Positions 49,781 through 55,896 of a stretch of 64,000 bases of DNA are shown in pieces. The stretch comes from Escherichia phage RB16. Numbering within the stretch: the first letter of the stretch is position 1; each line of letters begins with the position of its first letter. The position numbers and the translations under genes were made by a program. The stretch lies in the sequence record NC_014467.1. One strand, 5' to 3'. The notes beneath the pieces were generated by a model. It made no database searches. It was not told the DNA's origin and was given only the letters and a program-made list of their open reading frames with translations.

Positions 49781-49857
49781 GGCCCTTTAGCTTAATTGGT
49801 TAGAGCGGGTGACTCATAATCGCGCGGTTGCTGGTTCGAATCCAGCAGGGGCCACCA
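49781..49857 (+). tRNA. tRNA with anticodon CAU (Met, or Ile if lysidine-modified)
   Basis: Hand-folded cloverleaf: acceptor GGCCCTT/AGGGGCC, T-loop GGTTCGAATCC, anticodon loop CTCATAA, 3' CCA encoded. Confidence 0.75.
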
Positions 49858-49862
49858 AATAC

Positions 49863-49938
49863 GCAGGTGTAGTTCAATTGGTAGAATATCTGGTTTCCAT
49901 CCAGATTGTTGAGGGTTCGAGTCCCTTCACCTGCTCCA
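49863..49938 (+). tRNA. tRNA-Gly (anticodon UCC)
   Basis: Acceptor GCAGGTG/CACCTGC, T-loop GGTTCGAGTCC, anticodon loop TTTCCAT, 3' CCA encoded. Confidence 0.75.
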
Positions 49939-50552: not shown

Positions 50553-51122
50553 ATGCGCTTTTTAAAATACGCAAGCTGGCTTGTACTGGTTCCACTGGAT
50601 ATTCTTTCTGGTGTTCTGGCTATTCTGCTGGCTCCTTTCGTGGTTCCGTTCTATAGTGAAGAAACCGGACACTTACCTAAAGGGTTCCGTTGGATGGAAA
50701 CATTCGATAACCCGATCGATGGTGATGGTGGACATATCCGGCGTTGGGCTAACATCCGGTATCACTTAGGCGCTCTGGGTGTGTATACGCAACGTGTAGG
50801 CTGGTTGTGGCGTAACAAGGCGTACAACTTCGCTTATCACGTCTTAGGGCGTGAAGCACAATCAGACTTCGCCTGGAAGGGCAACCCGAAAACAGAAGGT
50901 GGTTCCGATCCATCACGTCACGGTTATCTGTTGATGTGGAATGATTCGGCATGGGGGCTTTATGTCTTCAAACCGTGGCTTAAAGTCGGAAAGGTTCAGT
51001 TCTGCTTACGCGTGTATTGCGGGTGGAAACTGAAACAGGAAGTAACTGACCCGAACGGGCTGGATCGTGCAATGCTGGCGTTCCATATCAACCCGTTGCG
51101 TTATTATGTCGTAGAAAGGTAA
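50553..51122 (+). CDS. membrane protein, unknown function
   Basis: 189 aa; N-terminal TM helices ([25 protein letters not shown]). Confidence 0.5.
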
Positions 51123-51126
51123 TACA

Positions 51127-51489
51127 ATGAAAGCATATCAGATTTTAGAAGGTTTACACACTGGCACAATCTACATGGAAGAAGGTAATGATGTTCGTGT
51201 GGTGGTATCCAAAACCCTCGAAATGGATTCAGTGATCGGTAAAGCTCGCGTTGCTCCATTCGCAAAACGTGAAGTCGATATTGAATTTCAACCCACTGTT
51301 AAAGTGGAAGGTGGACAACACTTAAACGTAAACGTGTTGCGCCGCGAAACTCTGGAAGATGCTGTGAAGCATCCAGAAAAATACCCACAGTTAACGATCC
51401 GTGTGTCCGGCTATGCAGTGCGTTTCAATTCACTGACTCCTGAACAACAGCGCGACGTTATCGCCCGAACCTTTACAGAGAGTCTATAA
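51127..51489 (+). CDS. autonomous glycyl-radical cofactor (GrcA/YfiD-like)
   Basis: 120 aa; C-terminal ~65 aa carry the glycyl-radical motif [25 protein letters not shown] and appear near-identical to enterobacterial GrcA/pyruvate formate-lyase C-terminus. Confidence 0.8.
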
Positions 51490-51770
51490 TGGCGATTGAA
51501 GACGTACAGGGCTATAAGCCCCATTCAAAAGAAAAGATCGACAAAGTAAACCGCATCAAGGCCGCTGAAATTGCCCTGGGCGAAATCTTCAAAGAACTGG
51601 ATGAAGAGTATTCAAGCGATTACGCGGTATCAGATACCGATTCATTCACCACAGAAGAACTCGATGCGATGCTTGAACGTGTCCATCAAATCCAACTGGC
51701 GAAAGACCGACTGAAAGAAGCCTCTATGTGGGCGTGTCGTGCGGTGTTCCAGCCAGAAGAAAAGTATTAA
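51489..51770 (+). CDS. hypothetical protein
   Basis: 93 aa; ATGG coupling with upstream gene; followed by terminator. Confidence 0.45.
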   Translation: MAIEDVQGYKPHSKEKIDKVNRIKAAEIALGEIFKELDEEYSSDYAVSDTDSFTTEELDAMLERVHQIQLAKDRLKEASMWACRAVFQPEEKY

Positions 51771-51774
51771 AATC

Positions 51775-51808
51775 CAGCCGTTGCCGAAAGGTAGCGGCTT
51801 TTTTCGTT
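51775..51808 (+). terminator. rho-independent terminator (10-bp stem with G-U wobbles, GAAA loop, U-run)
   Basis: AGCCGTTGCC-GAAA-GGTAGCGGCT followed by TTTTTTCGTTTTT. Confidence 0.55.
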
Positions 51809-51825
51809 TTTATGCAAAATAATGC

Positions 51826-51854
51826 TTGCACTGAATCAGGCTTTCTTGTATCTT
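51826..51854 (+). promoter_or_regulatory. sigma70-like promoter: -35 TTGCAC (within aATGCTTGCAc), 17-bp spacer, -10 TATCTT
   Basis: Shares the aATGCTTGCA -35 context with promoters at 9966-9994 and 56209-56238. Confidence 0.4.
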
Positions 51855-51895: not shown

Positions 51896-52189
51896 ATGAA
51901 AACTTACAACATGAAAGACCTGGTTTGCTTCAAAACTCGCCGTGAAGCCCGTGCGTATGTTTTGGCGGCTGGTAAGAATACCTCTGCTGTAATCGACCTG
52001 GGTACTGATAAAGAGGTTGGTGCTCGTTGGGCTGCTGTTGTGGTTATCGCTGCTCCTGTGACTCCTGTTAAAACTCTGGTTCTGGGTGCGCGTAAAGCCG
52101 AAACTCTGAAAACCAGCACTTGCGGGGCGGGTGGTGTTCATAATGTTACGGTCATTCGAAAAAGATCTTTTAATCGAGTCGGTGTATGA
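51896..52189 (+). CDS. hypothetical protein
   Basis: 97 aa; RBS GAGGA; overlapping minus-strand ORFs judged spurious. Confidence 0.4.
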   Translation: MKTYNMKDLVCFKTRREARAYVLAAGKNTSAVIDLGTDKEVGARWAAVVVIAAPVTPVKTLVLGARKAETLKTSTCGAGGVHNVTVIRKRSFNRVGV

Positions 52190-52279
52190 AGGTATACGGG
52201 GAAAACAGAAAGAACAATCTCCGAAGAGATTGATGTAATCAATGAATTTCTATGTAGACCATACGTTAAGAGAGTTATT

Positions 52280-52720
52280 ATGAATATTGGTAGTGGTGAT
52301 TCATACCCATCATGCGCATTGAGCAACTTCGCCCCGCATCCGTTTACGTTTGACGGGGTAGAATGTGCATCAATGGAGGGCTTTTTACAAAGTCTGAAAT
52401 TCAGCAATCCAGATATGCAAGCGCATGTGTGTACGCTGGTTGGTAAAGCCGCCAAGTTCAAAGGCAAGAAAAAGAAATGGTATCGCGATCAGACCCTATA
52501 CTGGAAGGGTATGCCGATTCACCGTGAATCAGAAGCATATCAAATTCTGATTGAAAACGCATATAATGCGTTATTCCTTAATGAAGGGTTTCGCCGTGCG
52601 CTGGCAGCAACCGGAAAAAGTACCTTGACACATTCAATGGGAAAGAATAAGATGAATGAAACGGTACTCACTGAACGTGAGTTTGTCCGAAATTTAACCC
52701 GATTGAGAGATCTGTTATGA
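52280..52720 (+). CDS. NADAR (YbiA-like) domain protein
   Basis: 146 aa; motif LSNFAPHPFTFDGVECASMEGFLQSLKF fits the NADAR N-terminal signature; FRRALAATG...LTHS fits the C-terminal part. Confidence 0.55.
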   Translation: MNIGSGDSYPSCALSNFAPHPFTFDGVECASMEGFLQSLKFSNPDMQAHVCTLVGKAAKFKGKKKKWYRDQTLYWKGMPIHRESEAYQILIENAYNALFLNEGFRRALAATGKSTLTHSMGKNKMNETVLTEREFVRNLTRLRDLL

Positions 52721-52995
52721 TAGGTTATAAAGATTATGATGAAAGAGTAGAATGCGCGTTCCTGTTCAAAGGCGCGATTAACCCGTTGGCATTACTCCAC
52801 GCACAGGGCGCTTTGAGTTCTACCCTGATTATGGGTGTTATCTACAAAGCGGGTGTGTATTACGTCACCATCGGCGCGAACAACATTAACGTGATCAACA
52901 GCTACGTTGAAAAATGTAAGCTGAAAGATATCGTGTTCGATAAAGTCGAAATGGATGTTCCTGGCTTCGACGCTGTTTATATGTACAAGGGTTGA
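52717..52995 (+). CDS. hypothetical protein
   Basis: 92 aa; 4-nt coupling. Confidence 0.4.
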   Translation: MIGYKDYDERVECAFLFKGAINPLALLHAQGALSSTLIMGVIYKAGVYYVTIGANNINVINSYVEKCKLKDIVFDKVEMDVPGFDAVYMYKG

Positions 52996-53219
52996 TGATG
53001 GGTTACGTGGTTTATTTCGATTGTTCGGATCTTGATCCGTTCGTTCTGCAACAGGCAAAGAAATATCATCAAGATATCACTGGTATCAGTGTCACGAACG
53101 ATGATATGCTGTGTATCGAATTTGATTATTATCGTACATTTGAGCGTGACAAATTCCTTGCGGATATTGAAGCGTTTAAGAGTACCCTTTTCTTTGATCG
53201 TTATGAGGTTAAATCTTGA
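52992..53219 (+). CDS. hypothetical protein
   Basis: 75 aa; 4-nt coupling. Confidence 0.4.
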   Translation: MMMGYVVYFDCSDLDPFVLQQAKKYHQDITGISVTNDDMLCIEFDYYRTFERDKFLADIEAFKSTLFFDRYEVKS

Positions 53220-53821
53220 AACCAGTTATTCTTACCGACATTGACGGGATCGCCGTAAAATGGCAGTCGGGGTTGCCGTTCTTTTTGTCTAAACACAACA
53301 TGCCGACCGATATCGCGCTGGATATGGTTACGGATGAAAAGTTCCGCGATATGACCGAAATCTTCGGGTGTGATCACCAACTGGCGAAAATTCTCATGGA
53401 AGAATACAACAACAGTTCGTTTATTCGCTATCTAAGCGCGTATGACGATGCGTTGATTGTGATCAACCGTCTGAAAGCAAAGTATGATTTCGTGGCTGTC
53501 ACGGCGCTGGGAACTACTCCTACGGCAAGCCTGAACCGTATTGCGAACCTGAACACGCTGTTCCCTTCTGCATTCAAAGAGGTTTGTGTTGTCGGTCACG
53601 GCGAAACGAAAGTACATCGTTACCTGGAAGCCAAAGCAAAATATGGCGATCGTTTAGTATGTTTCATTGATGACCTTGCAGTAAACTTGAATGAGTGTCA
53701 TAACGTCATCAGTCAGTTGCCGTTATTCCATATGTTGCGTGGCGAACGTAGTGAACCGAGTGTACCTCATACTAAAGTGAATAACTGGCATGAAATTGAA
53801 AAAGCAATTGAGAACTCTTGA
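53216..53821 (+). CDS. HAD-superfamily hydrolase, putative 5'(3')-deoxyribonucleotidase
   Basis: 201 aa; N-terminal DxDG motif (ILTDIDGI) and late DD motif (VCFIDDLAVN). Confidence 0.5.
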   Translation: MKPVILTDIDGIAVKWQSGLPFFLSKHNMPTDIALDMVTDEKFRDMTEIFGCDHQLAKILMEEYNNSSFIRYLSAYDDALIVINRLKAKYDFVAVTALGTTPTASLNRIANLNTLFPSAFKEVCVVGHGETKVHRYLEAKAKYGDRLVCFIDDLAVNLNECHNVISQLPLFHMLRGERSEPSVPHTKVNNWHEIEKAIENS

Positions 53822-54341
53822 TGAAGAAACGCAAGGTATAGAAAACCTACTACAATGTATTCGAGTAGAACCAGAAACCGGAAAATGTTTCTGGTTGGAA
53901 AAGAGAAGTAATAAAATTCCTGCTGGAAGTGAAGCAGGTTCTTTTCATAAATCAAGTGGATATACGCGAATAAAATTCGAAAATGCGATGTACATCCGGT
54001 CAAGGGTGATATTTTATTACGTTAATGGTTATCTTCCAGTGATGGTTGACCATGTTCACGGTGTTGAATGCGGTGATATGATTTCTAATCTAAGGGAGTC
54101 CAATCAGGTAACAAATCAACAAAACCGCACACGGAATAAAAATAATACCGTTGGGTTTAAGGGCGTGTCATTCAACAAGAAATCGCAAAAATATAGCGCC
54201 AAAATCACTTTACATGGAGTGACTAAGTGGTTAGGATTTTATGATTCTGCCGAGGAAGCAAGTGAAGCATATAAGGCCAAAGCACTCGTTTCCTTTACAC
54301 ATAATGAAAGGTACTTAAATGATCTTACAGATTCTGAATGA
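53790..54341 (+). CDS. HNH-AP2 homing endonuclease (Mob-like)
   Basis: 183 aa; YLPVMVDHVHGVECGDMISNL and GVSFNKKSQKYSAKI...WLGFYDSAEEASEAY; paralog of 33781..34311; inserted upstream of DNA ligase. Confidence 0.7.
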   Translation: MKLKKQLRTLDEETQGIENLLQCIRVEPETGKCFWLEKRSNKIPAGSEAGSFHKSSGYTRIKFENAMYIRSRVIFYYVNGYLPVMVDHVHGVECGDMISNLRESNQVTNQQNRTRNKNNTVGFKGVSFNKKSQKYSAKITLHGVTKWLGFYDSAEEASEAYKAKALVSFTHNERYLNDLTDSE

Positions 54342-55842
54342 ACTTGCTTCGACTCTGAAAACATCAGAGAAAGAAGCGATCCTTAAACGTAATGCAGGTA
54401 ATGACCTGCTGAAAGAGATTTTCCGCATTACGTACACGAAACAGATTATGTTTCACATCAAGAAGTTCCCGCAGGTTGACGGGAAGCCAGGCACAACACC
54501 GCTATCGAATGCTATCGCGGATTTAATGTCTGATCTGGCAACGCGGAAGTATACAGGCAATGCAGCCCGTGATCGTCTTCTGGATATCGTTTCATCGGTA
54601 AACGAAAACGACCGCGAAGTGTTACGCCGTATCATTAATCGCGATCTGGAATGTGGTGCTGGTACAACGTTACCGAACCGAGTATGGAAGAAACTCATTC
54701 CAGAACAGCCCCAGTGCCTCGCTACGCCGTTCAGTGAGAAAGCCTTAAAACGTATTCGCTTCCCTGCTTACTCTCAGCTTAAAGCCGATGGTGCGCGTTG
54801 TATGTCCGATCTGTTAGAAGACAAGATCCGCAAAGCATCCCGCGCGGGGAATGAGTATGAAGGTTTATTGAATCTGGACAAGGGTCTGAAAAAGATTCGT
54901 GAATATCTGGGTTATGATGTTGTACTTGATGGAGAACTGATTTATGTCCCTGCTGAAAAAACTGCTGTCGTTCCTTCAAACAGCGTTCCATTTAGTCTTG
55001 CTGGGTTTATGGGCGATGACGACGATTCTGTTTCTGACCTTGTGGCAGATGTTAGGCGGGAAGCTACCGAGAACGAGACACAAGCGGAAGCGAAACGCGA
55101 AGAGGGCAACGGGATTGTAAACAAATCCCTGAAAGGTACTATCAGCGACGAAGAACAGCGCAATATCGTTTATGTTGTCTGGGATATCGTACCGTATGAA
55201 GTATACTATGGTGATGCTCCGAGTGTTCAGCCATATTGCGATCGTTTCTCTATTCTGGAAGGTGCGCTGGCTGGCTCTGGTGTAACGTCAGTTAAGCTGA
55301 TCCCTTCTATCCTGGTGCAGAACTACGCGGAAGCGAAAAAGGATTACAACAATTACCGAAATGAAGGTAAAGAGGGTTCAATCCTGAAAAACGTTGATTT
55401 CAAATGGAAAGATTCACGCGTTGCGGATCAGGTGAAGTTGAAGAACAAAACCCCGATTGAACTGCGAATCATCGACGTGTACGAACACACCAAAGAAGCT
55501 CATAAGGTCGGAGGGTTCGTGGTTGAGGACTTATCAGGAGAAGCCAGAACAAACACAGGTTCCGGTCTGACTGATACGGACTACCGATACGATGAAGACG
55601 GTATTAACCGCGTGTACATCCCGTTAGAAGAACGTGGTGAACTGGATCGCGAATACATCATGGCGAACAAAGATGACTATATCGGCGCTATCGTCGAAAT
55701 GGAAGTTGACGGACTCCAGAAGTCTAAAACGCGTAAGAAGGGCGAACCTGAGTTCAGTTTCTTCTTGCCAATCATCAAGAAGATCCGACGCGATAAGACC
55801 GAACCGGATGATATTCACGTTATCTTCGCTGATCTGTTTTAA
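54319..55842 (+). CDS. 30: ATP-dependent DNA ligase (gp30)
   Basis: 507 aa; N-terminus MILQILNELAS parallels T4 ligase; adenylation motif KADGAR; motifs DGELIY and EG.ILK. Confidence 0.85.
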   Translation: MILQILNELASTLKTSEKEAILKRNAGNDLLKEIFRITYTKQIMFHIKKFPQVDGKPGTTPLSNAIADLMSDLATRKYTGNAARDRLLDIVSSVNENDREVLRRIINRDLECGAGTTLPNRVWKKLIPEQPQCLATPFSEKALKRIRFPAYSQLKADGARCMSDLLEDKIRKASRAGNEYEGLLNLDKGLKKIREYLGYDVVLDGELIYVPAEKTAVVPSNSVPFSLAGFMGDDDDSVSDLVADVRREATENETQAEAKREEGNGIVNKSLKGTISDEEQRNIVYVVWDIVPYEVYYGDAPSVQPYCDRFSILEGALAGSGVTSVKLIPSILVQNYAEAKKDYNNYRNEGKEGSILKNVDFKWKDSRVADQVKLKNKTPIELRIIDVYEHTKEAHKVGGFVVEDLSGEARTNTGSGLTDTDYRYDEDGINRVYIPLEERGELDREYIMANKDDYIGAIVEMEVDGLQKSKTRKKGEPEFSFFLPIIKKIRRDKTEPDDIHVIFADLF

Positions 55843-55860
55843 ATAGCACTTTTTGCTAAA

Positions 55861-55896
55861 AAGCCCCTTGCATGAGTAAGGGGCTTTTGTTATATT
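55861..55896 (+). promoter_or_regulatory. PeSL-like cassette: terminator hairpin AAGCCCCTT...AAGGGGCTT containing -35 TTGCAT, TTTTGT, -10 TATATT
   Basis: Part of 55841-55935, near-identical to 10641-10737 (reverse complement), including 5'UTR ACATCGAAACGAAACAGACAAAAGGAAC. Confidence 0.55.

Follow-up and report, generated by a model that had tools for sequence, protein, structure and literature searches.

A gp30.3-family gene in the phage RB16 genome

We investigated a 64,000-nucleotide stretch of the Escherichia phage RB16 genome (NC_014467.1), hereafter the window, with a focus on one open reading frame (ORF) on its + strand. The original prediction, made from the sequence alone, had placed a NADAR (YbiA-like) protein of 146 amino acids (aa) at positions 52280–52720, and an ATG-initiated ORF was found at exactly these coordinates. 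We propose that this gene is most probably the ortholog of T4 gene 30.3 (adfN) in an RB16/RB43-type T4-like phage, encoding a minimal single-domain NADAR ADP-ribosylglycohydrolase that counters DarTG1. Its reading frame, family, NADAR fold, catalytic residues, intact C-terminus, purifying selection and synteny were established in this work. The gene and its elements are as follows:

52280–52720, +: coding sequence (CDS) of the adfN / gene 30.3 ortholog, ATG start, 146 aa and a stop codon, NADAR-fold protein with a single domain (ORF listing)
52267–52273, +: weak Shine-Dalgarno-like AAGAGAG, 6 nt 5' of the adfN ATG (read from the sequence)
52376–52378, +: codon GAG, Glu33, equivalent of catalytic E36 of T4 AdfN and E48 of YbiA (BLASTP and hhalign)
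52397–52399, +: codon AAA, Lys40, equivalent of catalytic K43 of T4 AdfN and K55 of YbiA (BLASTP and hhalign)
52631–52633, +: codon CAT, His118, aligned to T4 H123 (BLASTP), the His that marks the phage gp30.3 clade of NADARs
52673–52714, +: C-terminal alpha-helix, residues 132–145, intact (DSSP on the predicted structure, with a predicted local distance difference test score, pLDDT, above 95)

The start codon matches the N-termini of many homologs in the family alignment described below. The stop codon of adfN and the start codon of the next ORF overlap in the tetranucleotide ATGA at 52717–52720, suggesting translational coupling of adfN with the following ORF. A hairpin in the 90-bp gap 5' of adfN did not exceed shuffled sequence in stability (z = -0.87). 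In the T4 annotation, an alternative-frame internal ORF, 30.3' (75 aa), lies inside 30.3; the window adfN has no conserved counterpart of it, the same relative (+1) frame holding only a dissimilar 41-aa ORF (52425–52550, +).

Family membership and NADAR fold

The window protein matched PF08010 (Phage_30_3, 'Bacteriophage protein GP30.3') with 189 bits against a cutoff of 36 (E = 4e-56), residues 9–144 covering positions 2–138 of the 138-position model, and matched PHROG 652 with E = 1e-52. A weak match to PDC-M42C was returned by PADLOC (E = 0.004). Homologs were found in 4495 protein clusters and in 1506 phage records; together with the PF08010 score, these counts put the resemblance well outside chance. 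Judged by these profiles, the specific family of the protein is PF08010/gp30.3 and not PF08719.

The original prediction had pointed to a NADAR signature, SNF...F.FDG.E..S.E.F.Q..KF, which fits LSNFAPHPFTFDGVECASMEGFLQSLKF residue for residue, and to a C-terminal segment resembling LRALLxAT, which was located as FRRALAATG. For confirmation it had named PF08719 or HHpred, and as grounds for rejection the lack of a significant NADAR profile hit. In a direct Pfam search, PF08719 scored 15.3 bits against a gathering threshold of 35.1 (E = 0.025), a borderline outcome if the prediction is taken literally, and the link to the NADAR superfamily was therefore tested independently. A search of PDB sequences with the window protein gave no match, and the family profile gave a marginal match to YbiA (2b3w) alone (E = 0.1), so that profile–profile and fold comparison were needed.

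A family alignment was composed of the window protein, T4 gp30.3 and 48 diverse members drawn from the 4495 homologous clusters (1165 representatives at 50% identity), and a YbiA/NADAR alignment was built from E. coli YbiA as seed. Comparison of the two by hhalign gave a probability of 97.8% (E = 1.1e-12) over 141 columns, pairing window E33/K40 with YbiA E48/K55 and FRRALAATG with YbiA LRALLLAT, and placing window His118 at YbiA E125/H126. An AlphaFold2 model computed from the family alignment had a pLDDT of 97.5, with all residues above 90, and a predicted template modeling score of 0.92. When this model was compared with the PDB using Foldseek, the top three matches were the NADAR structures 2b3w (YbiA, E = 3e-5), 8bau and 8bat, and the remainder were noise; a fold search with T4 gp30.3 was reported to retrieve the same three PDB structures at similar Z (PMC11257639). 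Matches to PF08010 and PF08719 also overlap on several genuine YbiA homologs. Profile–profile and fold evidence are both strong, and the window protein is predicted to have the NADAR fold; the NADAR membership claimed by the original prediction stands on hhalign, AlphaFold2 and Foldseek, and the PF08719 score does not suffice by itself.

The common fold, together with the sub-threshold matches to TIGR02464 (E = 0.0018) and to YbiA 2b3w, would also be in keeping with an N-glycosidase of the YbiA/RibX kind that serves salvage or damage control, its substrates being intermediates of the riboflavin pathway or other nucleotides, and nucleotide salvage had been offered in the original prediction as an alternative. 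However, TIGR02464 scored 18.5 bits against a curated cutoff of 73.7, and the E..T..D.YWGDGG...N block that is invariant in the YbiA alignment (E125, T127, D130, Y132, W133, D135–G137, N143) has no counterpart in the window protein, which has HSMGKNKMNETVLTEREF there. Furthermore, the Glu that defines the YbiA clade is His in the window protein (PMC11125620; PMC12945103), and no riboflavin or NAD-salvage genes occur among the ten ORFs flanking adfN. We consider a salvage enzyme of this kind very improbable.

Certain gp30.3-family representatives reach far greater lengths, 290–559 aa (P0126, P0147, P0194, P0208, P0192, P0195). In some of them the match falls into two or three stretches, pointing to tandem NADAR repeats or to fusion with other domains, although run-on gene calls could likewise account for them.

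Conservation, selection and intactness

BLASTP aligned the window protein with T4 gp30.3/AdfN end to end at 42% identity over 149 aligned columns (E = 1e-35), pairing T4 E36, K43 and H123 with window E33, K40 and H118 and extending at the C-terminus to the last residue of T4 AdfN. In the family alignment, E33, K40 and H118 are each at least 90% conserved, and the window protein agrees with the majority residue in each of the 43 columns conserved at 80% or more. Identity to the window protein rises to 59–76% for homologs from IMG/VR viral contigs and from phage records of Klebsiella, Enterobacter, Aeromonas and Vibrio, the T-even proteins being more distant. The ratio of nonsynonymous to synonymous substitution rates (dN/dS) was 0.075–0.114 in comparisons with five close orthologs of the same length. 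The window gene is a full-length, intact ortholog under purifying selection.

A natural inactive allele is on record in RB69, whose own gene is frameshifted and lacks the last 15 residues, a defect that correlates with DarTG1 sensitivity (PMC11257639), and some relatives of the window protein seemed to align over residues 1–136 only. It is nevertheless hardly credible that the window gene is a decayed or nonfunctional allele kept by linkage alone, since the ORF is full length, with its C-terminal helix, all conserved residues and a dN/dS of about 0.1. The RB69-like truncation of close relatives, seen as tblastn coverage ending at residue 136, was rejected as an alignment artifact, the Taquito CDS being 441 nt long and the P0010 protein 146 aa.

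Proposed role against DarTG1

Johannesman et al. (PMC11257639 preprint; Nat Commun 2025, PMC11825919) gave T4 gene 30.3 the new name adfN, for anti-DarT factor NADAR. As reported there (PMC11257639; PMC11825919), phage crosses placed DarTG1 resistance at 30.3, deletion of adfN made T4 and T2 about 10^4-fold more sensitive to DarTG1, ectopic AdfN rescued RB69 and the E36A and K43A substitutions abolished the rescue, purified T4 AdfN stripped ADP-ribose from DarT1-modified DNA, and the thymidine-specific DarTG2 was not countered. In vitro, the T4 protein hydrolyzed guanosine-ADP-ribose (G-ADPr) but not thymidine-ADPr (PMC11125620), and was inactive on cytidine-ADPr (PMC12945103). The last-strand residue is His in the phage clade, Glu in YbiA-type and Asp in DarG1-type proteins (PMC11125620; PMC12945103). 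A preference of AdfN for hydroxymethylcytosine (hmC)-containing DNA, an idea of the preprint, was overturned in the published paper, where unmodified T4-GT7 still depended on AdfN and resisted DarTG1 (PMC11825919); the RB43-type lineage lacks gene 42 (hmC) (Petrov 2010). The gene family, the fold and the anti-DarTG1 function are thus already known (published 2024–2025), and the ortholog is recognizable in public annotation and in Pfam.

From the T4 ortholog we infer that the window protein acts on guanine-ADPr in DNA, not on thymidine-ADPr, and confers an anti-DarTG1 phenotype. During infection, adfN would be expressed from an accessory-gene unit that begins at ~51.8 kb and ends with the terminator of the ligase gene at 55.9 kb. 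In a host carrying DarTG1, the DarT1 toxin would ADP-ribosylate guanine bases of the phage DNA and block replication; AdfN would then hydrolyze the N-glycosidic bond between ADP-ribose and guanine through a Glu33/Lys40/His118 center, restoring unmodified DNA and allowing replication to proceed. In doing so it would serve as an 'orphan antitoxin', without binding the toxin. Counter-defense against DNA ADP-ribosylation by DarT, as originally predicted, is supported in that it was shown for T4 gp30.3/AdfN and would extend by analogy to the window protein. The remark that no DarT-like partner lies nearby also holds, no DarT/DUF4433 match being found among the ten ORFs flanking adfN, which fits the 'orphan antitoxin' concept.

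Gene neighborhood

The region is 98% identical to that of Escherichia phage UPEC03 and 90% identical to that of Citrobacter phage Miller (Pseudotevenvirus), and the Miller ortholog, CPTMiller_0091, is already annotated as 'T4 gp30.3-like'. The genes are arranged in the order terminator, orf97, adfN, orf92, orf75, gp30.2 ortholog, HNH-AP2 homing endonuclease, DNA ligase gp30 and terminator, a block in which the T4 order 30.3-30.2-(30.1)-30 is kept. The neighboring features are as follows:

49781–49857, +: tRNA-Met (CAT)
49863–49938, +: tRNA-Gly (TCC), adjacent to tRNA-Met
50553–51122, +: DUF7338 protein (218.9 bits), upstream of the Acb2 gene and beside the GrcA-like ORF
51127–51489, +: GrcA-like autonomous glycyl-radical cofactor (PF01228, E = 2.5e-18), immediately 5' of the Acb2 gene
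51489–51770, +: Acb2/Tad1-family ORF, 93 aa (PF24729, 63.6 bits, E = 2e-17)
51776–51799, +: intrinsic-terminator-like hairpin, 10-bp stem with 6 GC pairs and a T-run
51896–52189 (97 aa), 52717–52995 (92 aa) and 52992–53219 (75 aa), +: small ORFs (PHROGs 7596, 7604 and 6222; no Pfam match)
53216–53821, +: gp30.2 ortholog (HAD-like), 47% identical to T4 gp30.2 across 198 aa (E = 2e-64), its Miller ortholog being noted as 'HAD-like'
53790–54341, +: ORF resembling homing endonucleases with HNH and AP2 domains, both Pfam matches sub-threshold
54319–55842, +: ATP-dependent DNA ligase (gp30; PF01068, 40% identity to T4 gp30), last gene of the unit
55859–55888: strong terminator directly after the ligase gene

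The hairpin at 51776–51799 is the probable 5' boundary of the adfN transcription unit. In the gap between this terminator and orf97, an element read by eye at 51822–51854 (+) consists of a MotA-box-like aaTGCTTgcA and a downstream TAnnnT-like TATCTT, and is possibly a middle-type promoter for the adfN unit. The spacing between its two parts is 17 bp, longer than the canonical spacing for a MotA-type promoter, which is 11–13 bp.

The three small ORFs lie on either side of adfN, apparently within its transcription unit. They were found in RB16/RB43-type loci only, the T4 30.x cluster having nothing equivalent, and their position makes them candidates for accessory or anti-defense genes. The gp30.2 ortholog has a TTG start and, at 201 aa, is shorter than T4 gp30.2 (278 aa): it aligns only with T4 residues 1–198 and lacks the ~80 residues that form the C-terminus of the T4 protein. 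Between it and the ligase gene, and overlapping both, the HNH-AP2 ORF takes the place of T4 gene 30.1; homing endonuclease genes of the AP2 type are known from RB16/RB43 genomes (Petrov 2010). Two tRNAs are given for RB16 in published tables, and a tRNA-Met is present in the equivalent region of Miller.

Upstream of the unit, the Acb2-family ORF is an ortholog of T-even Vs.4, with about 53% identity, the gene being named vs.4 in the annotation of phage PP01. Acb2/Vs.4 is a family of nucleotide sponges directed against the cyclic oligonucleotide-based antiphage signaling system; the window gene lies ~500 bp 5' of adfN and ends just before the terminator. Its position gives slight support to a different role for the adfN product, namely that it would hydrolyze ADP-ribosylated RNA, or soluble molecules derived from ADP-ribose (second messengers of immunity or by-products of RNA repair), instead of or besides DNA-linked ADP-ribose, with the two genes forming a small anti-signaling islet. 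A role of this kind was put forward for phage NADARs from context before experiments were available (Iyer et al., PMC9503650), and all NADAR families remove G-ADPr from RNA in vitro (PMC12945103). Yet the terminator separates the Acb2 gene from adfN, and the adjacency of the two is restricted to the RB16/RB43 lineage. Moreover, in T4 both genetic and biochemical evidence links the phenotype to DNA modified by DarT1 (PMC11257639; PMC11825919), and the cited NADAR literature reports no activity of the gp30.3 clade on a soluble substrate. We regard such a role as quite unlikely.

The neighborhood also bears on whether the enzyme could reverse or edit modifications made by ADP-ribosyltransferases of the phage itself (Alt/ModA/ModB-like), rather than those of host toxins. 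T4 30.3 lies about 3 kb from alt, and NADARs and ADP-ribosyltransferases are co-expressed as early genes in T4-like phages (Iyer et al., PMC9503650). In the window, by contrast, no ADP-ribosyltransferase gene stands beside adfN, where a terminator and baseplate genes come after the ligase; the T4 phenotype is accounted for by DarT1 (PMC11257639; PMC11825919), and the targets of Alt/Mod enzymes are proteins (and RNA ends) rather than guanine N2. An editing function of this sort seems highly unlikely.

Dependence on other phage factors

Several points weigh against the assignment of the window protein as an AdfN that counters DarTG1. The identity of 42% is to the single characterized member, and the Pseudotevenvirus orthologs are known from sequence alone; in addition, the PF08719 threshold was missed, as described above. 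Full activity of T4 AdfN is confined to T-even infection, and a further T-even factor appears to be required (PMC11825919). G-ADPr is hydrolyzed in vitro by all NADAR clades, including YbiA, which gives no protection from DarT1 in vivo (PMC11125620), so that conserved chemistry alone is no proof of the biological target.

Prompted by this apparent requirement of T4 AdfN, we searched for genes consistently linked to gp30.3 homologs, and the outcome belongs with the points above: no conserved linked partner was found in 81 loci (80 IMG/VR loci and the T4 locus) using single-sequence tblastn, which has limited sensitivity. A gp30.2 gene was located within 6 kb of the gp30.3 homolog in 10 of the 81 loci, and the ligase gene in 9. 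The genes that the window block has in common with T4 are AdfN, gp30.2 and ligase only.

RB16-type AdfN may differ from T4 AdfN, being either autonomous, like AdfN-Bas32 and AdfN-Bas60, or dependent on a lineage-specific partner among the three small ORFs. Since these ORFs lie downstream of Acb2/Vs.4 and flank AdfN, they could be new anti-defense genes, and the interval 51.5–53.2 kb a small anti-defense islet. We advance this idea tentatively and think it unlikely.

With the gene taken as an adfN ortholog directed against DarTG1, reading of the sequence alone recovered a true counter-defense gene. The characterized T4 protein is a divergent member of the family, and RB16-type orthologs are much closer to many of the non-T-even members. 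The RB16-type ortholog bears on whether anti-DarTG1 activity and dependence on T-even infection extend to the bulk of the family, which is relevant to forecasts of DarTG1 escape among therapeutic phages of Klebsiella, Enterobacter or E. coli.

Comparison with known systems

The window protein resembles T4 AdfN in belonging to the same PF08010 family, in its similar size (146 vs 152 aa) and in consisting of the core NADAR domain only. The two have the same catalytic Glu and Lys, the clade-specific His and an intact C-terminal helix, and both genes are positioned 5' of 30.2 and the ligase gene as orphans without a DarT partner. They differ in that the window comes from an RB16/RB43-type Pseudotevenvirus outside the Tevenvirinae, has two lineage-specific small ORFs between adfN and 30.2, and lacks a conserved counterpart of T4 ORF 30.3'.

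Compared with DarG1, the NADAR antitoxin associated with DarT1 (G. lovleyi NADAR, PDB 8bat; Schuller et al., Mol Cell 2023, PMC11543638), the window protein lacks the N-terminal extension (146 vs 219 aa) and has His in place of the last-strand Asp, and its gene does not lie beside that of a DarT toxin among the ten flanking ORFs. T4 AdfN cannot substitute for DarG1 in uninfected cells (PMC11825919; PMC11125620). From E. coli YbiA (PF08719/TIGR02464), the window protein is set apart by scores below both curated thresholds and by the absence of the C-terminal D-x-Y-W-G-D-G-G...N motif and of the Glu.

The independently acquired AdfN-Bas32 and AdfN-Bas60, too, are orphan NADARs encoded by phages; they act against DarTG1, with specificity for guanine-ADPr. 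These proteins belong to other NADAR branches and neutralize DarT1 even without infection, whereas the window protein is a member of the gp30.3 clade.
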